DNA of 64,000 nucleotides from Rhodothermales bacterium (GCA_965263205.1 CBDHHF010000016.1:1878-65877), one strand, 5' to 3'; numbered from the stretch's first letter, positions 2,929 to 32,719 are shown. Numbers and translations: made by a program. Notes: a model not told the origin generated them from the sequence alone.

Positions 2929-4785
2929 TTATCGGAGGAGGGTCATACTTCGGGTTTGGGTGGGCTGGTTTGTAACCTGCAGGCGATAGAAGTACATGCC
3001 GCTGGCCACGCCTTGTCCAGCCTGATCAGTTGCATCCCAGGATACGCTGTATGTACCGGGCGTATAGTGTCCGTGGAGCAGTTGCTTGATTTCCTGCCCC
3101 AGGACGTTGTACACCGTGAGTGTTACGGTACCCGGCGTATGTCCATTGATGGCAAAAGAGATGGTTGTTGTGGGATTGAACGGGTTTGGATAGTTGGGCA
3201 GAAGCTGCGTTGTCGTTGGCTGTTCGTCAGGTAATGTTGTACTTGTGATATAGGGATGATCGCTTTCAAAAAGGCGTATCTCGTCAACGGTTTGCACACC
3301 TCTAACCGTTTTAATACGCGCCCGTACATACTTGTTCACGAAGGGTATGATATCAAATGTTAATGTATTGGTGTTTGAGATAAGCATCCAGTCTGGTGCT
3401 AAATCAAAGGTTACATTTCCAATCTGTACACTACCGTTCGGCTCAAACAGGTTAAGGTGCCCCTCAATAGCTGCTACTGACATCCGTCCTACCTCCGTAA
3501 CCCTTGGCATGTCGTCACCTTCTTTGACAGCAAGCACAGTCACTAATTGTCCATGGGCAATGTTTTGGGATAAAATTGCGTTGTTATGTTCGTCTACGTA
3601 TTGCGTGGCGTCATCGAGTCTGAGGTACATGCCGTCAACTTGAAGTACATCGACGTTGATGGAATCCACGCGGCCTTCCACGTGCATTTGGTTATTTTCC
3701 AATCCTTCAATGCCAGAAATTGTCAACAACGTCCCGTCGGGTTGACGATCCGCCAAAATGTTGACTGGGAACTCGAGAGAGTCCTGGGGTGCTAGACCTG
3801 CGTTATTTTTGAGGAAAACGGCGAAAAATGTATTGGGTGTTACGACGAATGTCTGGCCGAGTATGGTTAAGGTGGGGCCTGTCAGCGCGGAGATGACACC
3901 GCGAACCTTTACCACGTCGTCGAAAAGCTCATCGCGCGCTATTTGTGTTGCAATTTGCTGGTCGTTCACCACGTCCGCTTGCACTTCAACGACCTGTCCA
4001 ATGATCAGCGAAGACAAAGGAATGGGCTGCCGTCCCCCTGTGTCGAGCACGGTTGTGTTCTTGTCGATGATGAATGTCTGGCCGGCAATGGTGAGTGTGT
4101 TATTCGAGTACGATTCGAGCGTACCCGTCATCTCGATTTTGTTAGCATAAAAGCTACGTTGCCTTATCCAGTCGGCGATAAAATTACCCGTCGCGTCGAT
4201 GGCTCCTCTGGCTGTGATAAACTGTAACACGGCCAGGTCTGCCGTGGCGATGGACTGGTTGTTTTCATCGCGTACCTGGAGTGCATCACCATAAAGAATG
4301 GGTTGCTTTTGGAGCACAAGCGCATCAGGTCCGGTCTGGTCGATGAAACCCGTCATTTCGAACAAATCGATGGTATTGGGCGCCGCGTCAGTGCCTACAG
4401 CTATGCCAACGCTTGCGCGGATTTCCCGATCATTTTCATCTTTTAATCTGAGCTTGAGTACCCAAGTTTGTTGTGATGGATTAAGCGAAGCTAACGCCAT
4501 AGCTTTTGTGTACGTGCCGTCCATGTTATTGACAAACGTTGTTTCAAGCGCATCAGGACCGAATTCGGATCGCAGCACGAGATCATTTTTATCGAGGTCG
4601 CCTGCAAAGAGATTGTCTGCGCGCACCATAATATGGAGCGTGTCAGTGGATTCAAACGCGCGATCTGAGGTGGAGAAATCTGCATTTTTTGAAATGTAAA
4701 TTTGCGCCTGTGCATTGATGACACCGGGCAGGAAGAGCAGTAGCGTTGCCAAAAAGGTCAGGTAGCGAGTCTTATCAAGGTTCAT
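2929..4785 (-). CDS. Secreted repeat protein (DUF5666-like beta modules) with T9SS C-terminal sorting domain
   Basis: Signal peptide. Internal repeats are of the type TLTIAGQTFIIDKNTTV / TLTILGQTFVVTPNTFF. The C-terminus YPNPFNPTTTISF...VYNVLGQEI...GMYFYRLQ...MTLLR is a Por_Secre_tail. Confidence 0.85.
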   Translation of the reverse strand: MNLDKTRYLTFLATLLLFLPGVINAQAQIYISKNADFSTSDRAFESTDTLHIMVRADNLFAGDLDKNDLVLRSEFGPDALETTFVNNMDGTYTKAMALASLNPSQQTWVLKLRLKDENDREIRASVGIAVGTDAAPNTIDLFEMTGFIDQTGPDALVLQKQPILYGDALQVRDENNQSIATADLAVLQFITARGAIDATGNFIADWIRQRSFYANKIEMTGTLESYSNNTLTIAGQTFIIDKNTTVLDTGGRQPIPLSSLIIGQVVEVQADVVNDQQIATQIARDELFDDVVKVRGVISALTGPTLTILGQTFVVTPNTFFAVFLKNNAGLAPQDSLEFPVNILADRQPDGTLLTISGIEGLENNQMHVEGRVDSINVDVLQVDGMYLRLDDATQYVDEHNNAILSQNIAHGQLVTVLAVKEGDDMPRVTEVGRMSVAAIEGHLNLFEPNGSVQIGNVTFDLAPDWMLISNTNTLTFDIIPFVNKYVRARIKTVRGVQTVDEIRLFESDHPYITSTTLPDEQPTTTQLLPNYPNPFNPTTTISFAINGHTPGTVTLTVYNVLGQEIKQLLHGHYTPGTYSVSWDATDQAGQGVASGMYFYRLQVTNQPTQTRSMTLLR

Positions 4786-4826: not shown

Positions 4827-4842
4827 TGCAGCGCTATTGCCA
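4827..4842 (-). promoter_or_regulatory. Candidate sigma54 -24/-12 promoter
   Basis: The minus strand reads TGGCAATAGCGCTGCA (GG-N10-GC, 14/16 to TGGCAC-N5-TTGCA). It ends 41 nt upstream of the ATG at 4785. Confidence 0.4.
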
Positions 4843-5012: not shown

Positions 5013-7772
5013 TCAGTAATCGACTCTGAAGGAGAGGGTAAACTGCCGGCCGGGTAGGGCGCGTGGTGAGGTGAGTGCTGCTGGACTACCTGGTTCGAGC
5101 AGCTGATCAAATACATTCTCGCGGTCAAGAATATTGATCACAAAAAACTGGATAGAGGAGCGGACGGAGCTGGATGAGATTTGTAGTACGGTACCCAGAT
5201 CCAGGCGCTGATAACTTGGCGCTTTGTCGTTTAATGGGGAGTTCAGGTCAAATGGATTCAGTGAAACAGGTAACGGCCGGAATGCCAGGAAGTCATAATA
5301 CGCCCTGCGAAGCGCCCACTTCTTGCCCCACTGGCTGACCCAGTTGGCTTCTAACGAAAAGGACTCGCTCAAACGTGCTACTGCGTCGAGCCTGATCTGA
5401 TGTGGTGTATTCCAGGGGACTTCCACGCGTTGGCCGTCAAATCGATTTGGGAATTGCTGTTCTGAAAGGATGTAGTCGTATCCCGATTTGAGCGTTAGCC
5501 AGTTACCTGTTCGGGCCATGTGCAAGCTTGCGCCATATGATCTGCCATCTGCCCTGCTAATGAACTGGTCTTGTGGCATGGAGGCTTCAGATCCTTCGAG
5601 TTGCTGCAATACTGCATAGTCGATCGTTAACACTTCTTGCCACTTGATAAAGGACTCGGCAGCGATGGTCCAGTTTTCGCCTGGCGTAATTAACATTTCC
5701 AGCGCAAGGTGCGAGGCCATGGGAGGCGTTTGGGTTTCATCCAACGGGAGCCAGAACAAGATAGACGGCGCAGCTGATGTTGTCCCGAAGCTGGTAAGGT
5801 CGTACTGGTTGATGTATTGCCTGTACATACCACCGGCAAGCCGAATCGCATAATTCCCCAGGAGCCTGTTTACAGCGTCGAAACGGAGCGCCAGCCGAGG
5901 TTCAAGATAGGCCTTTTCGTGGATGGGTAGATAGGTTAACCTGAGGCCTGGCTCTACGGTAGCAAAGGCATTCAACGCAATCTGGTTATGGACAAAGCCG
6001 GCCAGGTTTGTGGTAGAAATGTTGTGCGTGAGCGGTGGGACAAAGGCATTGCGGAAATCGAATTCCGTTTCCACGTGCGTAAACTCGAGCCCAATGTCTG
6101 TATGATGAAATGGGGAAAAGCTGTGTGATAGCGTCGAGCTCAGTGTAATTTCACGAATGAAGTTTCGCTCGGCGGAGGAGAGCGCATCAGCAAGCGTACT
6201 TTTCAGATCGACAGCCTTGAGATCAACCACTTGCGTGCTTGGCTGGTCTTCGATAAAATCATTGGAAGCACGGTAGCTGTATTGGGAATTGTGCCAGCTG
6301 CCTTTCAATTGCGTAGATAGCGCTGATTGGTTGCCAAGCAGCCAGCTATGTTTGAGTTGGCCGGCCCAGTTTAACCAGCTATAGCGGTCAGAGGTGATTA
6401 CAAACAAATCATTCCCAACTTCCAGTAAATCGTTGGTTACAACGAGGTCAGAGGCGATGCGGTTGCTGGCGCGGTAGAGCGAACCGTGTACACTTTGGTA
6501 AGGGGACAGTTTAATGCGTGTCGCCACGTGCAGATCTGAAAACGCAATCAACGGCGTCTGCGTGTGGGTTGTGAGGGTAGTTGGGGCTACCGACTCACCC
6601 GTCCACAGACTTGTGAGGAATGGATCAATGCCACTCCAGTTTTCGAGCAAAGCCTGGATACCACGGTCCTGGTACAGATCCCAGTTGCTTGTTCTGCCTG
6701 CTACCATAAATAGACCTTCGCGCTCATCTCCCAGATCAAAACGGCCTTTCACCTGACCGTTTGCACTTACCGGGTCAATCATTAAGGTAGCGCCGTATCG
6801 GTCAGCGGGATGCAGGTCCTGATCAATGGAAATGAATCCTGTGAGGTGGCTGCCGTGTCGTGCGCCATAGCCGGCTTTGTGCACGGTCATGCGCTTAATG
6901 GCAAGCGGACTGAATGCACCCAGGTACCGCCCAAGTGCTACCGGATCGCGAACAGGGGCGCCATCAAGCAACGTCACATGTTCATTACTGATACCACCCT
7001 GGATTTGTACACCCGCGAGCGGTTGGAGAATCGAAACGCCGGCCAGTTTGCTTGCCCCTCGCATGACATCAGGCGTACCTAAAGCCGACATCCCAACCAT
7101 ATTGGCACCTTTCAGCGTAGGGTTGCCCAGATCCTGAGAGGGGATGCGTTGCTCCAGACCGTCGATAACAATAGGGCCAACAGATGTGGCACTGGATTGC
7201 AATTTAATGTTGATTCGGCTCCGCGCACCCGGTTCAACCCAGATGCTGTCCATCGTTGTTTCATAGCCCACGTACGTCACAACCACGCGTTGCAACCCGG
7301 AGATCAGCGATTTGAAGCTGAAAAATCCATCCTGGTTGGTTGTTGTGCCTGAACTGCCATCTGCCAGTAAAACGTTAGCGTAGGGGAGCGGCATGCCCGT
7401 TTCTACATCGGTAATGCTTCCGGCCAGATCGCCAAAGAGTGGAGCCTGTTGGATGGCTTCGATAAGGATATAAGTGCCGGCAGAGGACCGGATATAATCG
7501 AGACCAGAATCCTGCAGGATGCATTGGAGCAACGCTTCAGGGGTAGCATCTTTTTTTGAGCAAAAGACTTGTTTGTCTTTGATGAGGTCGCTCGATACAA
7601 CCAGATCGAGCTGTGTTTGCGCAACAAGCGTTTCGAGGGCTTCTTCCATTGAAACGCCCCGGAGCAAGAGACTATACGTATTGCCTGCTTGCGCAAAAAC
7701 CTGGATACTCGTCGAACCAGAGAGCACCAGGAGGAGCAATACTACGTAGATGTTGCGCAAAGCAGATTTCAT
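5013..7772 (-). CDS. TonB-dependent receptor with N-terminal STN signalling domain and CarboxypepD_reg domain (FecA-like transducer)
   Basis: Domain order: signal peptide, STN-like segment (LLLRGVSMEEALETLVAQTQLDLVV..), CarboxypepD_reg (GSITDVETGMPLPYANVLL..), plug, then a long beta-barrel ending ..LSFRVDY. Confidence 0.9.
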   Translation of the reverse strand: MKSALRNIYVVLLLLVLSGSTSIQVFAQAGNTYSLLLRGVSMEEALETLVAQTQLDLVVSSDLIKDKQVFCSKKDATPEALLQCILQDSGLDYIRSSAGTYILIEAIQQAPLFGDLAGSITDVETGMPLPYANVLLADGSSGTTTNQDGFFSFKSLISGLQRVVVTYVGYETTMDSIWVEPGARSRINIKLQSSATSVGPIVIDGLEQRIPSQDLGNPTLKGANMVGMSALGTPDVMRGASKLAGVSILQPLAGVQIQGGISNEHVTLLDGAPVRDPVALGRYLGAFSPLAIKRMTVHKAGYGARHGSHLTGFISIDQDLHPADRYGATLMIDPVSANGQVKGRFDLGDEREGLFMVAGRTSNWDLYQDRGIQALLENWSGIDPFLTSLWTGESVAPTTLTTHTQTPLIAFSDLHVATRIKLSPYQSVHGSLYRASNRIASDLVVTNDLLEVGNDLFVITSDRYSWLNWAGQLKHSWLLGNQSALSTQLKGSWHNSQYSYRASNDFIEDQPSTQVVDLKAVDLKSTLADALSSAERNFIREITLSSTLSHSFSPFHHTDIGLEFTHVETEFDFRNAFVPPLTHNISTTNLAGFVHNQIALNAFATVEPGLRLTYLPIHEKAYLEPRLALRFDAVNRLLGNYAIRLAGGMYRQYINQYDLTSFGTTSAAPSILFWLPLDETQTPPMASHLALEMLITPGENWTIAAESFIKWQEVLTIDYAVLQQLEGSEASMPQDQFISRADGRSYGASLHMARTGNWLTLKSGYDYILSEQQFPNRFDGQRVEVPWNTPHQIRLDAVARLSESFSLEANWVSQWGKKWALRRAYYDFLAFRPLPVSLNPFDLNSPLNDKAPSYQRLDLGTVLQISSSSVRSSIQFFVINILDRENVFDQLLEPGSPAALTSPRALPGRQFTLSFRVDY

Positions 7773-7875
7773 AGGTGGTAGCCGGAATAAATAAAAAGGA
7801 GGGGCCAGCGGATTATGGTCGCTGTGCCCGCACCTTGATAGTCATGTATCCCAAACTCGGGTTACAGTTTCCAGC

Positions 7876-8952
7876 TTATGGGGTAGGGTTATTGTTTTCG
7901 CCCGATCCACGGGAGAAAATGCTAAACCCATTACTTATTTCTCTGAACTGACACTGTACCGACAGGCAGATCGATTCGATGAGTTCTTCGGGGGTGGGAT
8001 TTCTAACAAACAACGTGAGTTTGTGGTTGGCATCAATCGCCTCGTCCAGTTCGATATCCATCACATACCTGCGCTCCATTTCTGCGACGATTGACGCAAT
8101 CGACAGGTCCTGAATGGCAAATCCGTTGGAGCGCCAGGCATCAGCTTGTTCTACCGGTACCTGGGAGGCCATGGTTTCGATTTGTCCGTTTGCACTGGTA
8201 ACAACGCGGGCCATATCGCCGGCTTCTCGAAGCGTGTGCTGTTGGGTTTCGTCGTCATGACTTGTTACGAGCACGGTACCCGTTTTAAGCGCTACGCGAG
8301 TTTCTGGCGCGACATCGTGTTCGCGCGCCCATACATTAAAGCTGGTACCCAGCACACGAACTTGCGCATTAAACGATTCAACAATAAACGGCCGATCCAT
8401 TTTTTCGACCTCAAAAAAGGCTTCACCCTGTAAGCTTACGCGCCGCTTGTTGGTTGCGATGAGGGGCCAGGATTCGAAACGACGGGCATACTCGAGCCGC
8501 GAGCCGCTATTCAAGGTTACGACGGATTGATCAGGGAGTACAGCGGTAACCTGTTCCCCTAGCGGAGCCTGTACAACGACTGGAAGTCGCCAGAACCAGA
8601 TCATGCCGGCAAAAAGCGCAAGTGCTACGGCCGCACTCATGGTGGTCCATTGCATGGCTCGTTCACGTGGATGCCGGGCGCCTGACAGCGATGGACGGTC
8701 AGGAGCACGGCGCGAACGTGGTTTCGACGCGTCTGGCTGTGGTACGTCGCCGGCAGCATCAAGGGAGCGCTCCAGTTCTTGCAGCGCTGCCTCGGTATCT
8801 GGAATCAATGCGGGTGATTCGGTAGTGCCATCTTCGTCCATATGCCCAAGCAATTGCCAAACGCGCAATACGCGCGCCTGCTCTTCAGGCGTCTTCTGCT
8901 GCAGTTCTTCCTGCAGTTCGGGAGGTAAAGATGAATGACGTGGCGAACTCAT
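7876..8952 (-). CDS. FecR-family anti-sigma factor
   Basis: One TM segment (AAVALALFAGMIWFW). FecR domain (VTLNSGSRLEY..LQGEAFFEV..FIVESFNAQVRVLGTSFNV). It overlaps the sigma gene by 4 nt. Confidence 0.9.
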   Translation of the reverse strand: MSSPRHSSLPPELQEELQQKTPEEQARVLRVWQLLGHMDEDGTTESPALIPDTEAALQELERSLDAAGDVPQPDASKPRSRRAPDRPSLSGARHPRERAMQWTTMSAAVALALFAGMIWFWRLPVVVQAPLGEQVTAVLPDQSVVTLNSGSRLEYARRFESWPLIATNKRRVSLQGEAFFEVEKMDRPFIVESFNAQVRVLGTSFNVWAREHDVAPETRVALKTGTVLVTSHDDETQQHTLREAGDMARVVTSANGQIETMASQVPVEQADAWRSNGFAIQDLSIASIVAEMERRYVMDIELDEAIDANHKLTLFVRNPTPEELIESICLSVQCQFREISNGFSIFSRGSGENNNPTP

Positions 8953-9524
8953 AACTCAAGTAATGAGGGTTCGAAAGCTTCAATACGATGTTGTAAATGG
9001 GTTAATGCGCGCATAATGTGGTTATTCACAGTTCGCGGTGAAATCGCCATAATATCGGCAATTTCACGGTGGCTCAACCCTTGAAAACGGCTAAGTAAAA
9101 TCGCCTCCCGCTGTCGATCAGGCAATTCCTCTATCCACACCTTTAAACGTGTCGAGAGGGTACTCACATCAACCATTGCATCCGGCTGCTCCCGTTTGGG
9201 GATTTTACCAGATGACTGCTGCTTGATGATTTTGTGCTTTTCGTCATGGATCCGCTCATCTCGCAGATGTCGTATGGCGCGATTCTTTGCCATCTGATAG
9301 ATATATGCTTTTAATGAGCGGGAAGGGTCCAGCGATGTCCGGAGCCCCCATAGCGAAATAAATACATCCTGAATCAAATCGTGTGCAAGCGCTTCGTCTT
9401 TGACAATGCGGTGCACATAGCGAATCAGCTCTTCACGAAGCAACCGAAACAGATCCCCAAAAGCACTCCTGTCGGAGGCATTCAGGCGCTTGCAGTACTC
9501 TTCAAAAGAAGGGCTTGTACTCAT
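8949..9524 (-). CDS. ECF RNA polymerase sigma-70 factor
   Basis: Region 2 (DLIQDVFISLW..YIYQMAKNRAIRHLR) and region 4 HTH (LSHREIADIMAISPRTVNNHIMRAL). Confidence 0.9.
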   Translation of the reverse strand: MSTSPSFEEYCKRLNASDRSAFGDLFRLLREELIRYVHRIVKDEALAHDLIQDVFISLWGLRTSLDPSRSLKAYIYQMAKNRAIRHLRDERIHDEKHKIIKQQSSGKIPKREQPDAMVDVSTLSTRLKVWIEELPDRQREAILLSRFQGLSHREIADIMAISPRTVNNHIMRALTHLQHRIEAFEPSLLEL

Positions 9525-9641
9525 TGGGATGGACTAATTCCTTAGCTATTTAGTTGAATAGTACACAAGATAGCCGGCATGACTACAAGCCGGCAAGATA
9601 GGTTGGTATTTAATTGTCGTTACGGACGAAGAAGGGTTGTT

Positions 9642-9805
9642 GATTGCGGATTGTTGAATGCGGATTGTTGAATGCGGATTGTGGATCTGCATTAGGCTCG
9701 GCATCCTGAGCCATGCGAAGGATCCCTTCGGGGCTTGCAGCCCCTCGAATAATGAATATCGAGCAAGGAACCCCGAATGTCGAAGGAAAATTCAATCACT
9801 CCTCA
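9642..9805 (+). repeat. REP-like intergenic element, copy 1 (family shared with 37825-37996)
   Basis: Shares GATTGC(G/A)GATTGTTGA..CTGCATTA..CATCCTGAG(C/T)CA(T/C)GCGAAGGATC(C/T)CTTCGGGGCTTG..CGAATA..GAATATCGA..CGAAGGAAAA..GATCACTCCTCA with copy 2. It also contains a 14-bp internal tandem (GATTGTTGAATGCG x2). Confidence 0.8.
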
Positions 9806-9886
9806 ACTCCTCACTCCTCACTCCTCACTCCTCACTCCTCACTCCTCACTCCTCACTCCTCACTCCTCACTCCTCACTCCTCACTC
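9798..9886. repeat. Heptanucleotide microsatellite (ACTCCTC)n, about 12 units
   Basis: There are 11 perfect tandem ACTCCTC units at 9806-9882, plus one degenerate unit and one partial unit. The array abuts the stop codon (9885-9887) of the DUF5683-like gene. Confidence 0.95.
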
Positions 9887-10679
9887 AAAACCTCACTGTC
9901 AGCCTAACATTGTGCTGATGAGGCGTCGGCACGTAGTTCAGTCTTACGGGGGCGTTACCTGGCGTCGGATTTCTCAACAGCGCGTCGACGTAGCTGAACA
10001 CCCATATGCCAGCAGCTGCTACCGCCAGATTGTTGCGGGCTTTGTGCCAGGTGTCAAACGTATCATACCGATTGGCGATATCAGCGGGTGTTGTTGCGGC
10101 AAGGTAGTCGTCTTCTGCTTGCTGTCGCTGAAGATGAGCAACAAGAGCCGATACTGACGTTGCACCCCAGGCAGACATCAATAAAATTCCTTTCTTTCGC
10201 TCATTTTTATATAGTTGCCCCCAGCCGGGAAGAATCATCGATCGCATGACCGCCGCTGGTCTTCGATCTTCAACAATCAAATACCTTAACTCAGTCTCTG
10301 TAACACTTGTCGTGCGTTGCAACGCCTGCAATTCTTCCATGAATTCCATCACTTGGGGCGGCGTATCGCGGGGTGAGAGTTGCAGGGCCGGGTTAACCTG
10401 TAAGGCCAGCGCGAGTTGTTTGCGTGTGCCGGCCTGGTCATTTCTGGCAAACAGAATGAGCGCATACACCGTATGGATTTCGCCCAGTTCATTCGGTGAG
10501 AACCGCTCAAAAGAGGCTAGCGCTTCCTGAATGCGGGCTTCTGCAACCGAGAAGTCCAAATTCTCATACGCTCCCTTGATATCGCTGACCACGGCTTCAT
10601 TAGACTGCTGGGCGAGGCAGTTTGTGCTTATCCCACAAAACACAAGAACCAGGGCGATATGTAGCGCGCGGCGGAGCAT
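9885..10679 (-). CDS. DUF5683-like membrane protein with TPR-like N-terminal part
   Basis: Signal peptide. The motif ILPGWGQLYKNERKKGILL, followed by hydrophobic segments, is typical of the Bacteroidota DUF5683 family. It starts 3 nt after the Kelch gene. Confidence 0.6.
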   Translation of the reverse strand: MLRRALHIALVLVFCGISTNCLAQQSNEAVVSDIKGAYENLDFSVAEARIQEALASFERFSPNELGEIHTVYALILFARNDQAGTRKQLALALQVNPALQLSPRDTPPQVMEFMEELQALQRTTSVTETELRYLIVEDRRPAAVMRSMILPGWGQLYKNERKKGILLMSAWGATSVSALVAHLQRQQAEDDYLAATTPADIANRYDTFDTWHKARNNLAVAAAGIWVFSYVDALLRNPTPGNAPVRLNYVPTPHQHNVRLTVRF

Positions 10680-10682
10680 GGG

Positions 10683-12782
10683 TCAGCGCACAAGGGTCAA
10701 TAACTGGGTTTGTAGCCGGTCGTCGACGCGCATGACAACAAGGTAGCGCCCACTTGCAACCAGACGCTGTTGATTATCGCGGCCATCCCATATCACTTCA
10801 TGCTGGCCGGCCGGTAAGGGATGCGCCAGTAACGTTTTTATTTCCTGGCCCGACAGGTTATATATCGCAATGGACACTGTTAACGCCGTCCGTTCGAGGA
10901 CAAACGGGATCCTGGTCTTGCTGACGAACGGATTCGGGAAAGCCGGCGCAAGGTTGAACGCGCGTAGGGGCACCTCGTCTTCATTGCTTACCGGGCTGAC
11001 GCCGCCAAATGAAAACGTTGTAGACCAATCACTGGTGCCTACGGCATTAAATGCGCGGACTCGCCAGAAAAATTGGCCGCTTCCTGGTGAATCCAAATCA
11101 ATACCAGGTGTGACAAGCGTGGAGTCTACCAGGATTTCGGAGAAGGTATCTGTTCTTGCTAGCTGGAATCGATAAGATGCTGTCGTATCCCCGATCCAGG
11201 TAAATGTGATGGCCGGTGTATCGACTTCGGCATTGTTGGTTGGTGTCGTTAAAATGGGGATGGCAGGCAGTGACGCTGCAACCAACAGGTCAAACATCTG
11301 CGTGCTGGTATCCTGCCCATCGAAGAAGGATAGCGTGACAGGAATGATACCCACGTCTGCGAGGGCTGGGGTACCTGTAAGGGCCGCAGAGCCATCGCCG
11401 CGGTCTTGCAGGGTTAACCACGCCGGCAAAGAAGCTGCACTGATGACAATCGCATCTCCCTCCGCATCTGTCGCCTCGATCTCATAAACGTATGCCGTTT
11501 CAGCAAGGACACCTTCCACAGGCAGGGTTTGTACTTGCGGCGGATCGTTGACAGGGGTAATGGTTAGTTGCACGGTTGCGAGCGCCGATGCGCCGGCAGC
11601 GTTCTGAACGGTATAGGAAAACAGGTCGAGTCCGTTGTAATCTGCTTGTGGTACATAGCGGAAAGTCCGCGCATCGATTTGGGTGACAACACCGTTTTGC
11701 GGTTGGCTGAAGCCGGCAATGGTAAGTGGGGTGCCGGAAGGATCGATGTCATTGCCCAACACATCAACTGTAACCGCTGTGTCTTCGGGTGTGGTCGCTT
11801 CATCATTGGTGGCTGTAGGTGCTGCAATCACATCGAACGCTTCTATGCTCGCCAGCACCTCGCCTGATGCATTTACACCACCAAACACAAACAGCTGATT
11901 ATCTGCAAATACTGCCGCTGCGTTTTCACGGGCTTCAATCAACGAAGCGGCAAGCTCCCATCTATTCTCTTCCGGAATATACCGGTTGACCGTAGCGACC
12001 ACCTCGTTATTACTCATGCGCCCACCGATGACGTATGCAGCGCCATCAAGCGCAGCCGCAGTCAATCCGCCGCGAGCAGGCGCGAACGCAGCGCGTTCCA
12101 TAACGCCGTCGGTTGTATTAAATCGCTGTACAAGATTCAGCGGGCCAAAAGGACTAAAACCGCCAAAGGTAAAGGCTGAATCTGCAAGGGGTAACGCCGC
12201 AAAGGAGGCGCGTGCTACGCCAAGATCCCATGCGGGGAAGGGTACCCATTGATCCGCAGCTTCGTCGTAATATTCTACAGTGTTCAGGAATTGCGCATTT
12301 TCATTGGAGCCGCCGGCGGCATAGAGCGTGTTTTCGAGTACCAGCGCAGACAAACCCGCCCGGTTTGCTTGCAGACTTCCAATGGTATCCCAACGCTGCA
12401 AAACAGGATCATAAACTTCCACCGATTGCAACACGCTACTGTTGTTGCCCTGGCCGCCCATTACATAAATCTTGTCATTTAGTACAGCTGCTGATGCATT
12501 GAATCGAGCAATATCCATAGACGGAAGCGTTGTCCATGTATCATTTTCTGCATCATAGCGCTCTACAGTAGTAAGGGCCTGTCCATTTGCGTTTTGGCCA
12601 CCCAGCACGTACACCTGGTTCTCCAGCGCCACTGCCGTCACGCCCGAACGCGCGGTTGGCATTGGCGTACGGGATTGCCAGCTACGTGGATCATCAGCAT
12701 GGGCCATGCCGACGAACAGACTCGCCAGTAACAGGCACAGGAAGACACGTATGCGGGATGTTATGTGTTGATTAACAATCAC
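10683..12782 (-). CDS. Kelch-repeat / cadherin-like / Ig-like surface protein with T9SS C-terminal sorting domain
   Basis: About six Kelch units (..VYVLGGQNANGQAL..VERYD..W..). Cadherin-like segment (TNDEATTPEDTAVTVDVLGNDIDP..VNDPP). He_PIG-like segment (ASLPAWLTL..LTGTP). CTD FPNPFVSKTRIPF..IYNLSGQEI..GRYLVVM..LTLVR. Confidence 0.85.
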   Translation of the reverse strand: MIVNQHITSRIRVFLCLLLASLFVGMAHADDPRSWQSRTPMPTARSGVTAVALENQVYVLGGQNANGQALTTVERYDAENDTWTTLPSMDIARFNASAAVLNDKIYVMGGQGNNSSVLQSVEVYDPVLQRWDTIGSLQANRAGLSALVLENTLYAAGGSNENAQFLNTVEYYDEAADQWVPFPAWDLGVARASFAALPLADSAFTFGGFSPFGPLNLVQRFNTTDGVMERAAFAPARGGLTAAALDGAAYVIGGRMSNNEVVATVNRYIPEENRWELAASLIEARENAAAVFADNQLFVFGGVNASGEVLASIEAFDVIAAPTATNDEATTPEDTAVTVDVLGNDIDPSGTPLTIAGFSQPQNGVVTQIDARTFRYVPQADYNGLDLFSYTVQNAAGASALATVQLTITPVNDPPQVQTLPVEGVLAETAYVYEIEATDAEGDAIVISAASLPAWLTLQDRGDGSAALTGTPALADVGIIPVTLSFFDGQDTSTQMFDLLVAASLPAIPILTTPTNNAEVDTPAITFTWIGDTTASYRFQLARTDTFSEILVDSTLVTPGIDLDSPGSGQFFWRVRAFNAVGTSDWSTTFSFGGVSPVSNEDEVPLRAFNLAPAFPNPFVSKTRIPFVLERTALTVSIAIYNLSGQEIKTLLAHPLPAGQHEVIWDGRDNQQRLVASGRYLVVMRVDDRLQTQLLTLVR

Positions 12783-12839
12783 GCCTGTACAGAATATGGT
12801 CGCTTTTTGAAGCTCATATGGTGGATAAAGCCCTTTTTT

Positions 12840-12855
12840 GCAATGAATGTACCAT
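12840..12855 (-). promoter_or_regulatory. Candidate sigma54 -24/-12 promoter for the Kelch/T9SS-DUF5683 operon
   Basis: The minus strand reads TGGTACATTCATTGCA (GG-N10-GC, 15/16 to TGGCAC-N5-TTGCA). It starts 2 nt after the kinase stop, ends 57 nt upstream of the ATG at 12782, and has a sigma54 activator encoded 2 kb upstream. Confidence 0.55.
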
Positions 12856-12857
12856 GT

Positions 12858-14711
12858 TTATTTGTCTAGCAGCTCATGGAGGTTATAGGGTTGCCGGCGT
12901 TTTTCACCCGCAGCGACAATTAACGTACCCTGCCACTCACCGAGTTCACTGTTTTTGAGGACAATTGTGTGTGCCCCGGGTGCCAATAAAATCGTTTTGT
13001 TTGGCGGCAAGGTGCCGTAGTTGACCGAGTCAATCGATACCTCGGCCCACGGTAAAATCTCAAGGTCTACAGACGCCACAAAATCATTAAACGAGAGTCG
13101 AACCGTGTCGTGCTTGCTTGGGGCGATGGTAATTTCTTGTGTGTAAGCCGGGTAATGTGGATTCGAAAGCTCGAGGGTGTAGATACCTGCCGGCGCAGTG
13201 TGACTAACCGCCGGCGGCGCAGCGCCAACACGTTGGCCATCCAGTGCTACGTTGCACCAGGGGGTACACAACACCGTGAGGTTTCCCGGTTGAACAGCTT
13301 GGGGTGTTGCAATGTAGGCCAGGCTGTCGGCCAAACTGTCTGCCTCACCCTGCGCTGCTGCTCGCAGCAAAGCCGTTGAAACTGTATCTGTTTTTGAAGC
13401 TTGTTGTTCGGGCTGCGTTGGTGGTAGCGTAATGTTGGCGGCGGACGTTGGTGCTTCCGCCTCCGTGGTTGGCGTTGAGCGCAACGCTAGATTTTCCTGA
13501 GGCGATGTTTCATCGGCAGCGGCATCATCCTGCGGTATCGTAGTATCCGCAGTGCTGGCCTGTTCTATTGCACGGAATGGTTCGGTTGCTGTTGAGTTGG
13601 AGGATGATTGCGCCGGCTCGCCAAAATTCTGCAGCGCAAGCATGATCAGCAAGATCAGGGTTACACCACCAGCGATGCCAGCCCAGCGCATACTGCGCCT
13701 TCGCGTTGGCTCGACGGATGCCCTGTCTGCCGGCTGCGCAGCGGTTACGCTGTCCATACTGGCGGTACTTTGGGCGGGTGTCTCAACTGCTGCAGGCTGC
13801 GCCTGGATCACTGGTGCTTCATACTGTGTCGGGGCTGCAAGAAAGCGCTGTACTTCTTCTGTGCCGCGGTGGCCGTCGTACAACGATGCAACATCATCTA
13901 GCGCGCTCACTACCACATTCGCAGTATCAGGACGGTTGTTTGGCTCTTTGTCGAGTAATTCGCTGCATAGTGCTACGAGGTTATCCGGTATAGCGGGATC
14001 GCCGGTCAGTTCGGGGACCGGATCATAGTTGAGCAGGCTGTCGAACAGGGCACGACTGTCCGTGCCTCTGAAAGCAACGGTGCCTGTAAGCATTTCGATC
14101 AGTGTTGCGCCGAGGGCAAACAAGTCGCTTTGTACGGAGCCGGCAGCTTCGGTAAGGCATTCGGGTGCCAGATAGGCCGGCGTACCTGTAACAGCCGGAT
14201 GGCCCGTTGCGGTAGTTTCTTCTGTTGTATCAGCCTGCTTAAGCGTAGCCAGCCCAAAATCGGTCAGTTTCACCTGCCCATCGTTCGCAATAAGAACATT
14301 GGCAGGTTTAAGATCTCTGTGTAAAATATGCTGATTGTGCGCAGCATGCAGGCCCCGTGCGATATCTTGCGCAATGTGGATTGCAATAGGGGCAGGTAAT
14401 TTTCCGTGCGAATCGATCAGGCTACGCAACGATTGTCCTTCGATAAACGCCGTTGTGAGGTACACCTGTTGCTGATCTTCTCCAAACGAAAGGATTTGCA
14501 CAACATTGGGATGTTGTACTTTGGCCATGAGCCGTGCCTCCTGGGCAAACTGTTCAGCCAGGTCGTTGTTGTATCGCAACCGGTCGTGCAAGACTTTCAG
14601 CAGGACATACCGCTCCAGCGACGCATCGTAAGCCTTGTATACGTCGGCCCAGGTGCCTTCCTGGATTTTGAGGAACGGTGTGACGCCACCTATTGGTTTG
14701 TGATGCCCCAT
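12858..14711 (-). CDS. Hanks-type Ser/Thr protein kinase with TM segment and two C-terminal PEGA-like domains
   Basis: Catalytic motifs HRDLKPANVLI, DFGLA, GTPAYLAPE and the VAIK-type Lys (VLLKVL). TM segment GIAGGVTLILLIMLAL. The C-terminal beta domains (LTVLCTPWCNVALDGQRVG.., LEILPWAEVSIDSVNYG..) resemble PEGA. Confidence 0.85.
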   Translation of the reverse strand: MGHHKPIGGVTPFLKIQEGTWADVYKAYDASLERYVLLKVLHDRLRYNNDLAEQFAQEARLMAKVQHPNVVQILSFGEDQQQVYLTTAFIEGQSLRSLIDSHGKLPAPIAIHIAQDIARGLHAAHNQHILHRDLKPANVLIANDGQVKLTDFGLATLKQADTTEETTATGHPAVTGTPAYLAPECLTEAAGSVQSDLFALGATLIEMLTGTVAFRGTDSRALFDSLLNYDPVPELTGDPAIPDNLVALCSELLDKEPNNRPDTANVVVSALDDVASLYDGHRGTEEVQRFLAAPTQYEAPVIQAQPAAVETPAQSTASMDSVTAAQPADRASVEPTRRRSMRWAGIAGGVTLILLIMLALQNFGEPAQSSSNSTATEPFRAIEQASTADTTIPQDDAAADETSPQENLALRSTPTTEAEAPTSAANITLPPTQPEQQASKTDTVSTALLRAAAQGEADSLADSLAYIATPQAVQPGNLTVLCTPWCNVALDGQRVGAAPPAVSHTAPAGIYTLELSNPHYPAYTQEITIAPSKHDTVRLSFNDFVASVDLEILPWAEVSIDSVNYGTLPPNKTILLAPGAHTIVLKNSELGEWQGTLIVAAGEKRRQPYNLHELLDK

Positions 14712-16201
14712 TCCTTCAACCTGTAGTGTAACCAGCTTCGAGATACATCGAGGGTACGGGCCGTTTTGGATACGTTGTGCTCGCAGTCTTCGAGTGTTTG
14801 CAACACAACTTCTTTTTCGATGGCTTTGAGCGTTTTGCCTGCGTGTGTGGCGCGCTGGTACTTTTTGTCCAACGGTCCATCAACCACGGGCAAGCTTAAG
14901 TCCTTTGTATTGATGAGTGCTCCTGTAGCAAGCACAACAGCGCGCTCTATGCTGTTTTGCAACTCGCGCACGTTACCGGGCCAGTGGTAGGCTTTCAGGG
15001 CATCAAGCGCGGCGGGTTCAAATCCTTTTACGTATTCGCGCCGGCCCACCGCGTACTTATCCAGGAAGTGATGGGCAAGCAGCACAATGTCATCGTTGCG
15101 CTCGCGCAGGGGCGGGGTGATGAGTGTAATCGTATTGAGCCGGTAGTAAAGATCTTCCCGAAAGACATTTTCGCCAACCAAATCTGGCAGCAACTTATTC
15201 GACGCAGAAATGACGCGCACATCCACGTGCCGTACATGATTTTCACCGATGCGTTTTACTTCGCCTTCTTGTAATACACGCAGCAGAGCTGTTTGAATGG
15301 ATGGGCTTAAATCTGCCACTTCATCCAAAAAGAGGGTGCCGCCGTCTGCAGCTTCAAACAAACCAGGCTTGTCCGCTGAAGCGCCTGTAAATGCGCCTTT
15401 TTTGTAGCCGAACAGTTCACTCTCTAACAGCGTGTCGGGCAGGGAGCCGCAGAAGAGGGCGAGGAATGGTTTGTCTTTGCGATGTCCGTTGTAATGGATG
15501 GCACGTGCGACAAGTTCTTTGCCTGTCCCGCTTTCGCCCTGAAGTAAGACGGTGACATCTGTATCGAGTACCCGTTGGACAACATCAAACATGTCGCGCA
15601 TGGGCCGGCTCTGTCCAATAATTTCTTTGAAGCCGTGGATATGCTGAATCTCTTGCCGCAGGTGCCGGTTCTCGTCGCGCAGCGTTTGATAGAGGCGCAC
15701 ATTTTCGATAGCAACAGCTGCCAGGTTAGCAAAGGCCTCGAGAAATGGCAGGTTGTCTTGCTTGAAGCGACTCCGATCGGAGAGGCAGTCCATGTAGATG
15801 GCGCCAACCTGTCGGTCTTTCATGCGCAACGGCACACACGCAATGGAGCGGATATTCTGCAAGATGATGCTTTCAGCACTCCCAAAATGATCGTCTTCCA
15901 GGGCTTCGTGTAAGAGTACCGGCTCGCCTTGCTTCAGCACACGGTGGACAACACTGGTTGAGATTTTGACGACATCACCCAGTTGTTCGCTCGAGAAATT
16001 ATGCGATGCGCGCACTTCAAACCCTTCCTGGGCAGTGGTACTTGTAAGCAGCACGAAGCCGCGGTCGGCTTGCAGGGTATCGGTTGCGGTTTTGAGCACG
16101 TGATCGAGGAGTGCTTTGGGCTCCTGGATCGAGTTCAGCGTAAGCGCGATCTCAAAGAGTGCGTCGAGCGAATGGGATGATATGGATGTTTGCTCAGGCA
16201 T
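14690..16201 (-). CDS. Sigma54-dependent transcriptional activator (bEBP) with N-terminal GAF domain
   Basis: Domain order: GAF-like N-terminus, AAA+ Walker A GESGTGKE, the diagnostic GAFTGA loop, Walker B LFLDEV, and a C-terminal Fis-type HTH (NVSKTARTLDVSRSWLHYRL). Confidence 0.92.
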   Translation of the reverse strand: MPEQTSISSHSLDALFEIALTLNSIQEPKALLDHVLKTATDTLQADRGFVLLTSTTAQEGFEVRASHNFSSEQLGDVVKISTSVVHRVLKQGEPVLLHEALEDDHFGSAESIILQNIRSIACVPLRMKDRQVGAIYMDCLSDRSRFKQDNLPFLEAFANLAAVAIENVRLYQTLRDENRHLRQEIQHIHGFKEIIGQSRPMRDMFDVVQRVLDTDVTVLLQGESGTGKELVARAIHYNGHRKDKPFLALFCGSLPDTLLESELFGYKKGAFTGASADKPGLFEAADGGTLFLDEVADLSPSIQTALLRVLQEGEVKRIGENHVRHVDVRVISASNKLLPDLVGENVFREDLYYRLNTITLITPPLRERNDDIVLLAHHFLDKYAVGRREYVKGFEPAALDALKAYHWPGNVRELQNSIERAVVLATGALINTKDLSLPVVDGPLDKKYQRATHAGKTLKAIEKEVVLQTLEDCEHNVSKTARTLDVSRSWLHYRLKEWGITNQ

Positions 16202-16204
16202 GAT

Positions 16205-17197
16205 TTATGGAATTCGAAAGCCGGCTTCGCGGGATCTGCTTGTGTTGCCAAATTCATCTACAATAGATACGGTCCAGAAGTACTCGCCGGCTGCGAGGGT
16301 ATTGAGTTGAAACGATGTGCTGTCCGACGGAATATTCGGTATTGACCGCACCACGTTCTGGATATTGTTGTCGACCCGCACAACATCGACCTTGTAGGTA
16401 AAGGGGAAGCTAATGGCAGCAGCTTCCCAGGAGAGCGCGGGTGCCGTGGTATCCAACAACGATAAATCACGTGGGGATACGGCGAGCGGCGACGTCTCAA
16501 TGACTCGGAAGAGGGCTTGTTTATCCGATTGATTGATGCTATTGGTGCGATCGCGTGCGTAGAGAAAGATGTCGCGCCCCAGCAGTGCCGGCAAGGTCGT
16601 TGGCAGGCTGTCTCCCTGGATAAGCCGGCCAAATCTACCGGGTGTTGTTTGGGTAGACAGATCCACGCGGAAATCAAACGCAGGAATCTCAAGCCACACC
16701 TCTTCGATATCAGCAAGTCCGTCGCTGTCTGTAAGGTCGGCTTGAATATCCAGTCTGAACAATTCTTGCGGCGGTGGCCACCATCGACTGATGTGGACTG
16801 TGTTTATATCAATGTTGCTGAATGTTGGCAGGCCGGGTAGGGAAATGGCGACGGTGGAAAACTCGCCGGCGGTTACGTCAACCCGGGTTGTTTGGGTTGC
16901 ATATCCGGGAAGCGAGGCCGTTAAAGTGTAGGTGCCAGAGGCGAGGTCAGGAATAAAAACGGAACCACTGGCATCGGTCGGACCAGCAAAATTGCCAGGG
17001 TCTGTCTGCACAGTGACGCCTTCCAGCCCTGCTTGTGGGGCATAGAATGTTGTGACCTGCACGGTAAGGCCGCCTTCATCTTGAAAGTTTTCACCGCGTG
17101 GATCCAGTGGATTGTTGCGCGGCGCACCTTCAAAACAGCCAGACAGCGTGAGCAGGGCAGTCACGAGAAAAAGGCTATAGAATTTTAGTGCAGACAA
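16205..17197 (-). CDS. Lipoprotein with CarboxypepD_reg-like and Fn3-like domains
   Basis: Lipobox LTLSGC. CarboxypepD_reg-like stretch (GVTVQTDP..DASGSVFIPDLASGTYTLTAS). C-terminal Fn3-like module ending EYFWTVSIVDEFGN. TTG start. It ends 3 nt before the bEBP gene. Confidence 0.65.
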   Translation of the reverse strand: MSALKFYSLFLVTALLTLSGCFEGAPRNNPLDPRGENFQDEGGLTVQVTTFYAPQAGLEGVTVQTDPGNFAGPTDASGSVFIPDLASGTYTLTASLPGYATQTTRVDVTAGEFSTVAISLPGLPTFSNIDINTVHISRWWPPPQELFRLDIQADLTDSDGLADIEEVWLEIPAFDFRVDLSTQTTPGRFGRLIQGDSLPTTLPALLGRDIFLYARDRTNSINQSDKQALFRVIETSPLAVSPRDLSLLDTTAPALSWEAAAISFPFTYKVDVVRVDNNIQNVVRSIPNIPSDSTSFQLNTLAAGEYFWTVSIVDEFGNTSRSREAGFRIP

Positions 17198-17603: not shown

Positions 17604-17813
17604 ATGGCACAAGGTAAAGTAAAATGGTTCAATGTTGAAAAAGGCTTCGGCTTTATTGAACCTAACGATGGTAGCAAAGACGTTTTTGTACATCGTAACA
17701 ACGTTGATGGACTTGGTTGGGATGATGGTCTTCGCGACGGTGAAGAAGTAGAATATGAAGTTGAGCGCACACCCAAAGGTTTGGCCGCAATGAACGTTCA
17801 GCGGATGAACTAA
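17604..17813 (+). CDS. cspA: CspA-family cold-shock protein
   Basis: 69 aa. RNP1 KGFGFI and RNP2 VFVH motifs in the context [20 protein letters not shown]. Confidence 0.95.
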   Translation: MAQGKVKWFNVEKGFGFIEPNDGSKDVFVHRNNVDGLGWDDGLRDGEEVEYEVERTPKGLAAMNVQRMN

Positions 17814-17840: not shown

Positions 17841-17877
17841 AAAAGCCTGGTCTTCGGATCAGGCTTTCTTTTTTTGT
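17841..17877 (+). terminator. Rho-independent terminator of csp copy 1
   Basis: Hairpin AGCCTGGTC-TTCG-GATCAGGCT followed by TTCTTTTTTT. Confidence 0.75.
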
Positions 17878-17898: not shown

Positions 17899-18546
17899 TT
17901 AGCGAAAGGTGCATTGTGCCCCTGCCGGCGGCTTAACGCCTACAACAACCTCCCCGCAATTTTCGTCGTATACCGAACAGTAACAAAACAAAAAGCTGTA
18001 GCGGTTGATCACTTCATCGCGTACGGTACCCGGGGGCCAACCTGGCAATGAATCGCCCTCGGGGACATAGAGCCTAAACAACACATGTATCGTATTGGTC
18101 GCGAGCAACTCGCCAGCACCCCGCGTATGTACAAAAGACCCTGTGGGGAATGGCAGTGCGTTGACCTCATCGAGAAAGCCGTTGAAACTGAATTGTCCTC
18201 CTTCAGCTAACGCATCGTATATCTGCTGCCCATCTCGAAAGACCGTTAAGTTTTTGATGACCGCCGGTCCAAGTCCCGTATTTTCGATGCCATACGTAAT
18301 AGCATAGCGACGTTGGCTGGCCTGTTGAATCATCTCTTCTGATGCTTCAAGATGGGGTAATACTGAAAGGCGGTTGTAGCGCCGGCTTTCCCTGCCTTCC
18401 CATATTGAAAGACCTATGGCAGCAAGTGCAACGATGATGGTAAGGATGTTGGCAAGTACCTGCAGCGTGGGGCCGGCGTTTTTTGGAGAGGGTGCCGGTT
18501 TTTGTGGAACAGGTTCGGGGGTATGGGATGGAGCAGGAGATTCCAT
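17899..18546 (-). CDS. Hypothetical membrane-anchored protein
   Basis: 215-aa ORF with one N-terminal TM (ILTIIVALAAIGLSIW) and a Cys-containing C-terminal domain. I recognise no family. Confidence 0.5.
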   Translation of the reverse strand: MESPAPSHTPEPVPQKPAPSPKNAGPTLQVLANILTIIVALAAIGLSIWEGRESRRYNRLSVLPHLEASEEMIQQASQRRYAITYGIENTGLGPAVIKNLTVFRDGQQIYDALAEGGQFSFNGFLDEVNALPFPTGSFVHTRGAGELLATNTIHVLFRLYVPEGDSLPGWPPGTVRDEVINRYSFLFCYCSVYDENCGEVVVGVKPPAGAQCTFR

Positions 18547-24738: not shown

Positions 24739-24852
24739 GACCACAAACGACGTCTCATCTTTTTAATTGTGGCGAAATGCCCTCGTATGGCATCGTACCC
24801 TACCAGCAGAAACTGTTAACCTTCATTTGTTAAACTTCAACTGGTAAACACG

Positions 24853-25251
24853 ATGCGTACTTCTTCTTTCTTTAACCGTATGCTTTCCATCGCTGCTTTT
24901 GTTAGCCTCTTTGTTTTGGGTACCGGGTTTTCCTCAAGCCCACAGGTTGCATCTGAGCTTGAAGGCACCTGGCTTATCGATTTACGGCCTGAACCCAATG
25001 CTGCCCCTTACATCCAGCGCATGGTAATCACCTCTACGAAGGGGAATAAACTCCAGGGTACGTTTTACGACAGCAAAATCATGAATGGCAAGATCAATAC
25101 CTCGTGGGGTAAAGTGGTTTTTGCGTTCACCACCAGAGACGGCAGCGGGGATTACCACACCGTTGGTACACTGGAAAATGGAAAGCTCACAGGCACAACC
25201 CATTCGATCGGTCGCGGCTTTGTCTCTCCATGGACTGGAGAGCGGAAGTGA
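24853..25251 (+). CDS. Hypothetical exported protein
   Basis: Signal peptide and a 132-aa beta-rich sequence. I recognise no family. Confidence 0.5.
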   Translation: MRTSSFFNRMLSIAAFVSLFVLGTGFSSSPQVASELEGTWLIDLRPEPNAAPYIQRMVITSTKGNKLQGTFYDSKIMNGKINTSWGKVVFAFTTRDGSGDYHTVGTLENGKLTGTTHSIGRGFVSPWTGERK

Positions 25252-25425
25252 GGATCCTACAGCCAACCAAACGCCGCGCCGTATCCTTTACTGCGCGGCG
25301 TTTGTCGTTTTTGTAACCCTTATGGCATTTGGGGCTTCAAAAAAAGCAGCATGATACATTGATTGTCGGCACGCTTGCAGTTAACATCTATAGACCACGC
25401 GCTACACGTTAACCTGTTTGATGCC

Positions 25426-26999: not shown

Positions 27000-27046
27000 C
27001 GCGCATGTGTGCTGGTTTCTATCCACCCATTATTTTCAATTAGGTT

Positions 27047-32659: not shown

Positions 32660-32671
32660 GCTGAGAAGGTT

Positions 32672-32707
32672 GGCTTCCGGACACAGGGTAAGCTACATCC
32701 GGAAGCC
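32672..32707 (-). other. Intercistronic stem-loop between the two TBDR genes
   Basis: GGCTTCCGG-N18-CCGGAAGCC, a 9-bp perfect stem with no T tract. Confidence 0.5.
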
Positions 32708-32719
32708 TCGCAAGGCATC

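Follow-up and report, generated by a model that had tools for sequence, protein, structure and literature searches.

A lipoprotein, GAF activator and PEGA kinase gene core associated with a conserved sigma-54-type promoter ahead of putative surface-protein genes in Rhodothermales and related groups

We describe a gene module found at positions 9885-17197 of a 64-kb stretch of DNA from a Rhodothermales bacterium (the window, to which all coordinates refer unless a related locus is named). It consists of five minus-strand genes, coding in order for a lipoprotein, a bacterial enhancer-binding protein (bEBP), a membrane serine/threonine kinase, a Kelch-repeat protein whose C-terminal domain (CTD) resembles those of type IX secretion system (T9SS) cargo, and a DUF5683-like membrane protein. 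A preliminary description of this DNA had listed five such co-directional genes, joined by junctions of 3 nucleotides (nt), -22 nt (an overlap), 75 nt and 3 nt, and calling of open reading frames (ORFs) returns the same coordinates and junctions (Table 1). The 75-nt gap at 12783-12857, the only one of note within the module, holds a GG-N10-GC element. The first three genes form a core that is kept over phylum-level distances, and a -24/-12 element of the sigma-54 type follows the kinase gene in nearly all the loci where a Kelch gene is present.

The five genes and their relatives

Rhodothermales supply the full-length homologues of the kinase, and seven locus look-ups (six anchored on kinase homologues at 37-56% identity, Rhodothermus marinus included, and one on a lipoprotein homologue 76% identical to that of the window) displayed the five genes in an unchanged order, between unrelated flanks. 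A scan of one genome per species with the lipoprotein alignment brought together 66 loci from Rhodothermales, Rubricoccaceae, Ignavibacteriota, Calditrichota, KSB1 and metagenome-assembled genomes of Bacteroidota, the isolates including Roseithermus sacchariphilus and two Rubrivirga strains; these loci were then searched by tblastn with the five window proteins. The preliminary description had staked its reading on a conserved gene order: lipoprotein, bEBP and kinase genes indeed succeed one another on one strand in every one of the approximately 70 loci that extends far enough. The five-gene unit that it proposed is thus upheld, with the correction that the Kelch gene is not universal, being missing from 12 loci. 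Downstream of the kinase gene tblastn nearly always finds the DUF5683-like gene, and an all-against-all clustering of the neighbourhoods returned as recurrent partners these five genes and a DUF5666-repeat protein only.

Domain assignments were made by Pfam and NCBIfam profile searches with curated cut-offs. The lipoprotein matches CarboxypepD_reg (40.6 bits, cut-off 32.3) and fn3_3 (30.5 bits), and the cysteine of its lipobox, read from the sequence as L-S-G-C, is retained in at least 90% of 50 homologues; the CarboxypepD_reg/Fn3-like lipoprotein of the preliminary description is thus borne out. An AlphaFold model built from 50 sequences (pLDDT 93.4) predicts a rod of three tandem beta-sandwich domains, CarboxypepD_reg-like at residues 42-120, a middle one at 124-223 and an Fn3/Ig-like one at 239-329. 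Searched with Foldseek, the model retrieved generic Ig/Fn3 tandems only, at TM-scores of 0.2-0.3, and gave no functional hint; the family comprises 74 protein clusters, all unnamed. The public call of the lipoprotein gene (P0121, 319 amino acids) places the start 11 codons further into the gene than the TTG taken here, which would shorten the signal peptide. The public call of the bEBP gene may also use a different start; an exact-sequence look-up of the window bEBP ORF found no gene on record.

The bEBP had been announced as a GAF-AAA+(GAFTGA)-HTH activator of sigma-54, and this assignment is secure: its GAF domain scores 60 bits, Sigma54_activat 224.8 bits and HTH_8, at residues 458-498, 42.3 bits, while the motifs GAFTGA, Walker A GESGTGKE and Walker B LFLDE, read directly, are invariant across 64 orthologues, as are S81, S111 and S119 of the GAF domain. 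It is without a receiver domain. Identity runs from 61 to 80% in five Rhodothermales orthologues, and the closest solved relative is NifA (9qq6_C, residues 11-497 aligned, E 8e-86). That the protein might be a NifA equivalog was rejected, with TIGR01817 at 398.4 bits for a cut-off of 528.85 and no nif genes nearby.

The kinase, rightly called a Hanks kinase in the preliminary description, matches Pkinase at 169.7 bits and has the M. tuberculosis PknB as its top Foldseek match (TM-score 0.90). Residues K39, E58, H131/D133/K135/N138, the DFG at 151-153 and P183-E184 are invariant in 47 homologues; the glycine-rich loop of the window protein is degenerate. In an AlphaFold model made from 47 sequences (mean pLDDT 80) the kinase domain, at residues 1-300, is followed by a predicted transmembrane helix at 339-362, a disordered linker at 366-468 and two seven-strand beta-sandwiches at 475-540 and 546-610 (pLDDT ~88-97). 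These would be the two PEGA-like domains that had been claimed: the first passes the cut-off of PF08308 (27.8 bits for 20.8), and the second has its modelled sandwich and a score, 16.6 bits, that remains below it. Membership of the PknB/Stk1 PASTA kinases (NF033483) was ruled out, at 248.7 bits for a cut-off of 450 and with an ectodomain made of PEGA, not PASTA. The models of kinase and lipoprotein both agree with the membrane topology proposed below. Among 56 loci, 32 have overlapping bEBP and kinase genes, 14 of these with an overlap of 22 nt, and in 49 the two genes overlap or lie at most 30 nt apart; the two proteins are therefore probably made together by translational coupling. In Rubrivirga sp. 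IMCC45206 (L026, 12553-14990) about 2.4 kb are inserted between the two genes.

The Kelch protein begins with a signal peptide, MIVNQHITSRIRVFLCLLLASLFVGMAHA/DD, recognized by eye in the sequence. Kelch_1 reaches 189.9 bits in five stretches, six GG-containing blades being discernible by eye, and Big_9 (72.5 bits), Cadherin_5 (64 bits) and He_PIG (28.5 bits) are also matched. Its C-terminal domain, in which PNPF and G-Y motifs are visible, is recognized by FlgD_ig at 42.8-45.2 bits (cut-off 27). Of the six Kelch repeats, cadherin-like region and T9SS-CTD that had been described, the first two were therefore recovered, and the third lies below the curated T9SS cut-offs, a point to which we shall come back. 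A Kelch orthologue comes after the kinase gene in 39 loci; in 24 of these it is a form of 410-440 amino acids, made of Kelch and CTD without the cadherin/Ig part.

The last gene encodes a protein with a signal peptide, a helical N-terminal part, a PGWGQ motif and hydrophobic segments. Its earlier labelling as a DUF5683-like membrane protein is borderline as to the family, PF18935 scoring 26.3 bits for a cut-off of 26.7, with orthologues that are likewise weak matches. The gene was found in 41 loci, adjoins the kinase gene directly where Kelch is absent, and is separated from the Kelch gene by at most 5 nt in 22 of 28 loci. It belongs to the conserved core, with or without the Kelch gene.

The -24/-12 element, a probable second cargo gene and candidate operators

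In the 75-nt gap, directly behind the kinase gene, one reads TAA-ACA-TGGTACATTCATTGCA. This last element, non-coding and on the coding strand, agrees with TGGCAC-N5-TTGCW at 10 of 11 consensus positions, with one mismatch and a GG/GC spacing of exactly 10 nt; its GC is 57 nt upstream of the GTG that starts the Kelch gene, and transcription is predicted to start near 12828. Taken by itself the motif carries no weight, as the window contains four one-mismatch matches to this consensus for 3.57 expected, which is no excess over chance. A second strict match, at 34079-34094 on the minus strand, lies inside ORF 32720-34627 and was taken as fortuitous. It is the position of TGGTACATTCATTGCA and its conservation in orthologous loci which make it significant.

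A first promoter scan had demanded only GG and G(C/T). In 36 loci a sequence YGG(C/T)A(C/T)-N5-TTG(C/T) was found 0-60 nt, rarely up to 300 nt, past the kinase stop codon, always with the exact spacing, with A at -22 (two bases after GG) in 35 of them and TTG in all 36, for a background match rate of about 0.04 per 70 nt; the non-coding DNA around it is not conserved. According to a hand-curated count, 35 of the 39 Kelch-bearing loci possess the element (binomial P ~1e-44) versus one of the 12 Kelch-less loci (Fisher p = 3e-7). The GG-N10-GC sequence that had been noticed in the only real gap is thus a conserved -24/-12 element tied to the Kelch gene. Its -12 box varies with the clade, being TTGC in most Rhodothermales, TTGT in Rhodothermus and TTGT/TTGA in Ignavibacteria-type loci. 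Two loci display an unusual arrangement: in L002 some 300 nt (11687-11980) separate the kinase stop codon from the promoter, occupied by tandem units resembling GGGAGTCCGGA and then by the reverse complement of these units, which together form a long imperfect inverted repeat, and in L048 an extra ORF (14150-15256) lies between promoter and Kelch gene.

The 400 nt upstream of the lipoprotein gene served as an internal control. A weak -24/-12 match was found there in five of 67 loci, and none in the window; the regulatory operon is therefore not itself sigma-54-dependent. Auto-regulation of this sensor operon through a -24/-12 element was discarded on the same counts.

In the Kelch-less loci a strong -24/-12 element occurs 100-315 nt after the DUF5683 gene, and next comes an ORF of 860-960 codons specifying DUF5666 or CarboxypepD_reg repeats that end in a T9SS-type CTD. 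The same arrangement lies behind the DUF5683 gene of several Kelch-bearing loci (L012, L014, L017, L036 and L052), and homologues of the DUF5666-CTD protein stand behind a -24/-12 element after the DUF5683 gene in at least eight loci. In the window, a protein of this type matches DUF5666 at 93 bits, FlgD_ig at 36.8 and CHU_C at 26.4, and is probably the second cargo of the system. The weaker candidate element TGGCAATAGCGCTGCA is placed 41 nt upstream of its ATG at 4785, the match to the element being its sole support in the window. With a second promoter and a family of cargo proteins, the output of the system would therefore seem to be a small and variable set of CTD-bearing surface proteins, and not the Kelch protein alone. 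In Rhodothermus (L005, 13945-14010; L022; L072, ~11950-12290) a dyad and a -24/-12-like element, CGGCACGTTCTTTGTT, are found after the DUF5683 gene, pointing at a convergent rtcB gene, which in R. marinus carries an intein; the element is perhaps a vestige, or else it may drive a small gene or RNA missing from the annotation.

In related loci, the non-coding stretch ahead of the second promoter shares a 17-bp dyad, TGYGCA-N5-TGCRCA, all counts of which allow at most one mismatch. Past the DUF5683 stop codon 14 of 43 loci have the dyad within 130 nt, at a distance of 120-165 nt from the second promoter further downstream, with 17 instances after that stop codon for 0.35 expected (P ~3e-23). At the Kelch promoter 12 of 37 loci carry it on the downstream side, 51-72 nt from the TGG and in eight cases at exactly 51-52 nt (12 observed for 0.14 expected, P ~1e-19), and the 270 nt before this promoter hardly ever contain it; examples are found in L017 (14398 and 16591), L012 (14478 and 16592) and L040 (14305). 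The dyad is present only where the recognition helix of the bEBP reads VSRRW(L/I)(H/Q)Y, and never with VSRSW, the version of the window's clade, nor with VSVRW or VSLRW, an association that could reflect covariation of specificity or shared ancestry. We regard this dyad as a candidate operator of the bEBP. Downstream of the Kelch promoter, it might act as a roadblock against read-through, or as an RNA hairpin in the 5' untranslated region (UTR).

The clade of the window differs in this respect. In the window, the dyads TGYGCA-N5-TGCRCA and TGTCGA-N5-TCGACA are at or below chance frequency, with none near the module. The site where other clades carry the dyad is occupied by the conserved block AAGCGACCAT-N4-TGTACA, and L073 and L001 share its 10-mer, letter for letter, with the window. 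Two relatives from this clade have in common, at their DUF5666 genes (L003, ~2870-2890; L009, ~6020-6040), the 19-bp palindrome CTGTCGA-AATTA-TCGACAG, which is perfect and precedes a TGGCAT-N5-T(A/G)G(A/T) element by about 100 nt. Not found in the window, this palindrome may be the clade's own version of the operator. A search for enhancers in the 3' end of the kinase gene (its last 250 nt) brought none to light: the k-mers enriched there, CCCTGGGC, only encode the Pro-Trp-Ala of PEGA, and no palindrome is shared.

Surroundings of the module

Table 1. Position of the module, its putative control elements and neighbouring features in the window
Feature	Position	Strand	Remarks
Lipoprotein gene	16205..17197	-	330 aa; lipobox LSGC; first gene of the module in 63 loci
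GAF - AAA+ (GAFTGA) - HTH_8 bEBP	14690..16201	-	503 aa; NifA-like architecture
Membrane Hanks-type Ser/Thr kinase	12858..14711	-	617 aa; start overlaps bEBP stop by 22 nt
Sigma-54-type -24/-12 element TGGTACATTCATTGCA	12854..12839	-	GG 12853-12852, GC 12841-12840
Conserved block AAGCGACCAT-N4-TGTACA	12805..12786	-	From alignments; predicted 5' UTR, ~+24..+43
Kelch propeller + Big_9/cadherin-like + He_PIG + FlgD_ig / T9SS-CTD-like protein	10683..12782	-	699 aa; GTG start
DUF5683-like membrane protein	9885..10679	-	264 aa; 3 nt past Kelch stop
Weaker candidate -24/-12 element TGGCAATAGCGCTGCA	4842..4827	-	9/11 consensus; CTGC for TTGC
DUF5666-repeat protein with T9SS-type CTD	2929..4785	-	618 aa; tblastn and Pfam
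cspA-like cold-shock gene	17604-17813	+	69 aa; divergent to the lipoprotein gene
Bidirectional hairpin terminator	17842-17867		Strong; 11-bp stem
TCACTCC tandem repeat	9796-9886		7-nt unit, 12.9 copies
14-nt tandem repeat	9637-9682		3.3 copies
ECF sigma factors of two cassettes	8949-9524; 36217-36825
FecR-type anti-sigma factors of two cassettes	7876-8952; 35162-36169
CarboxypepD_reg outer-membrane proteins of two cassettes	5013-7772; 29975-32659		~900 aa; the latter with STN domain

The cold-shock gene divergent to the lipoprotein gene has a counterpart upstream of the module in L001, and the terminator beyond it separates it from ORF 17899-18546. At the other end of the module, the heptamer array begins at the stop codon of the DUF5683-like gene, with the 14-nt repeat close to it. 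In two metagenome runs, word depth over 9781-10061 amounts to 275-560x versus ~3-5x elsewhere, with many different loose ends, and the array is therefore dispersed in many copies or in many genomes. The window also contains two paralogous surface-signalling cassettes (5013-9524 and 29975-36825), each with an extracytoplasmic function (ECF) sigma factor, a FecR-type anti-sigma factor and an outer-membrane protein, and the second with an additional ORF of 635 codons, 32720-34627, that has no Pfam match. The first cassette sits between the module and the DUF5666 gene, a place where no related locus has one. Further away, an AraC-type regulator lies beside two sulfatase genes (25363-26562 and 27047-28525) in the region 23578-28525, and the protein encoded at 50030-51607 ends with a sub-threshold match to Por_Secre_tail (24.4 bits, cut-off 27).

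A proposed circuit and its rivals

On balance, we consider it probable that the module is a dedicated sigma-54 circuit for surface cargo of the T9SS type, with the PEGA kinase and the lipoprotein as its input. The sensor operon, made of the lipoprotein, bEBP and kinase genes, would be constitutive, expressed from its own non-sigma-54 promoter in the gap of about 400 nt that extends from 17198 to the csp gene. The kinase would reside in the inner membrane, with its PknB-like domain in the cytoplasm and its two PEGA sandwiches in the periplasm, and the lipoprotein would be its periplasmic or outer-membrane partner, delivering a signal to it or modulating that signal. The kinase would then act on the bEBP, most likely by phosphorylating serine or threonine residues of the GAF domain or of the linker between GAF and AAA+, which would free the AAA+ ring from repression by the GAF domain; the latter would add a second input. 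The invariant catalytic residues of the kinase are our reason for preferring phosphorylation. The bEBP, in turn, would activate the sigma-54 RNA polymerase at TGGTAC-N5-TTGCA, with production of the Kelch-CTD protein and of the product of the tightly coupled DUF5683-like gene, and in many genomes it would also drive the second promoter before the DUF5666-CTD gene, possibly here at 4842-4827. A role for sigma-54 is supported indirectly, by the invariant GAFTGA and the conserved promoter. With their signal peptides and T9SS-type CTDs, the products are therefore presumably exported and attached to the surface; to call them adhesins would be a guess. A circuit for exported proteins fits the proposal of Francke et al. 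(PMC3162934) that sigma-54 generally controls the bacterial exterior.

A number of observations weigh against this proposal. No rpoN gene (RpoN box) was found in the 64-kb window or in any fetched locus, nor were T9SS core genes found within the window. The C-terminal domain of the Kelch protein remains under the T9SS cut-offs, with Por_Secre_tail at 18.2 bits for 27 and TIGR04183 at 17.5 for 23; proteins made of CarboxypepD_reg repeats and a CTD in L046 and L056 do reach the T9SS cut-off, and they belong to a different family of cargo, not to the Kelch homologues. Four Kelch-bearing loci show no recognizable -24/-12 element, and the -12 box departs from TTGC in Rhodothermus and in Ignavibacteria-type loci. 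No upstream enhancer was found for the window promoter, and the dyad downstream of the Kelch promoter occupies a non-classical position for an enhancer. The interval from the kinase gene to the Kelch gene contains no predicted intrinsic terminator, and read-through may therefore add to the expression of the Kelch gene. No FHA protein, phosphatase or other phospho-reader is conserved in the neighbourhoods, that the bEBP is the substrate of the kinase is something we infer, and the sequencing runs which contain this DNA are low-depth metagenomic DNA only, with no RNA run. As for export, T9SS cargo with CTDs has been documented in Roseithermus sacchariphilus RA and in Rhodothermus marinus (PMC6539836), and R. 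sacchariphilus carries the module (P0163; L017).

A more specific form of the proposal is that the kinase, with the lipoprotein as co-sensor, directly phosphorylates the GAF domain in place of the link between histidine kinase and receiver, and that this would be an ancestral switch, common to the superphylum, for T9SS surface proteins of the Kelch-CTD and DUF5666-CTD types, the operator perhaps blocking read-through until the signal arrives. We put it forward as a tentative scenario, possible without being probable. It could be that kinase and bEBP work in parallel instead, the latter sensing only a ligand of its GAF domain, while kinase and lipoprotein phosphorylate other proteins, such as the DUF5683-like protein, the cargo or components of the secretion apparatus, the genes being linked by a shared surface process. 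In NifA, NorR and FhlA it is the GAF domain that senses a ligand. In NorR this role has been described in a publication (PMC2941729). Such wiring would also suit a DUF5683-like gene that is a constant member of the cluster, the phosphorylation of the bEBP being our own deduction. Against this, the adjacency of kinase gene and bEBP gene is absolute, mostly with an overlap, over distances as large as those between phyla, no other cytoplasmic partner is conserved in the neighbourhood, and we find parallel wiring unlikely.

The main rival to phosphorylation is control of the bEBP in the manner of NifL, where the kinase would bind it stoichiometrically as an anti-activator or a co-activator, catalysis being reserved for autophosphorylation or for other targets. 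The nifL and nifA genes are co-transcribed, as the partner genes are here, where an overlap in 32 of 56 loci fits production of the two proteins in a 1:1 ratio, and the bEBP resembles NifA over residues 11-497. The invariance of all the catalytic residues in 47 kinase homologues favours phosphotransfer, however, and anchoring in the membrane would limit the formation of a stoichiometric complex with a DNA-bound hexamer, which makes binding of this kind more doubtful still. Finally, that GG-N10-GC is no promoter and that the Kelch and DUF5683 genes are the distal part of a five-gene operon read from the lipoprotein promoter, as the chance-level frequency of the motif in the window and the lack of a predicted terminator after the kinase gene might suggest, is very improbable in the face of GG, A and TTG kept with exact spacing in 36 loci amid unconserved non-coding DNA, of an element that co-occurs with the Kelch gene and of its recurrence before the second cargo gene.

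The sigma-54 circuit that we favour has counterparts among known systems, none of which it reproduces. It is like NifL-NifA of Azotobacter or Klebsiella in that a receiver-less GAF-AAA+-HTH activator, co-transcribed with a dedicated sensor of kinase-type fold, would be controlled by it, and it differs in that the partner is a membrane Hanks kinase with periplasmic PEGA domains, whereas NifL is a cytoplasmic PAS/GHKL protein, in that the activator gene precedes that of its partner, and in its targets, which are secreted surface proteins. As in NtrB-NtrC, ZraS-ZraR and AtoS-AtoC, a sensor kinase gene lies beside that of a bEBP, here thought to activate a nearby -24/-12 promoter; in contrast to these, the module has neither histidine kinase nor receiver, with GAF in the place of the receiver and a kinase of the eukaryotic type. 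FHA-domain bEBPs of Myxococcus xanthus have reportedly been linked to Ser/Thr kinases by Jelsbak, Givskov and Kaiser in 2005. The proposed input of a Ser/Thr kinase into sigma-54 activators is common to both cases, whereas the module lacks FHA, fixes the kinase gene beside that of the bEBP and has the lipoprotein as a constant third member. In Porphyromonas gingivalis, PorX-PorY-SigP associates a two-component system and an ECF sigma factor in the control of the genes of the T9SS machinery. This too is a dedicated regulatory device for type IX secretion, found within the same superphylum; the module, unlike it, is based on sigma-54 and adjoins the genes of the cargo. RcsF and NlpE are outer-membrane lipoprotein sentinels that feed inner-membrane kinases. 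Here also a lipoprotein is encoded with an inner-membrane kinase, contact with which would allow it to report on the envelope or the surface, but it is a three-domain Ig/Fn3-like rod, related to them neither in sequence nor in fold.

The preliminary description knew of no case combining a GAF-bEBP, a PEGA kinase and T9SS cargo. Our search of the literature likewise found none, and nothing on the module, on DUF5683 or DUF5666 in this context, on PEGA kinases with sigma-54, or on Ser/Thr kinases with GAF-bEBPs. The usual switches of sigma-54 activators are histidine kinases, small ligands and anti-activators. The hard-wired pairing of such an activator with a Ser/Thr kinase of the eukaryotic type and a lipoprotein would, if true, constitute a new route of input. 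To our knowledge, almost nothing is known of the regulation of T9SS cargo beyond Porphyromonas and Flavobacterium. Two thermophiles that are cultivable and genetically studied carry the module, Rhodothermus marinus (L072) and Roseithermus sacchariphilus (L017), and every step of the model is therefore directly testable. It would also provide a first functional context for four families of proteins, that of the lipoprotein, the DUF5683-like proteins, the DUF5666-repeat proteins and the bacterial proteins that combine Kelch repeats with a CTD.

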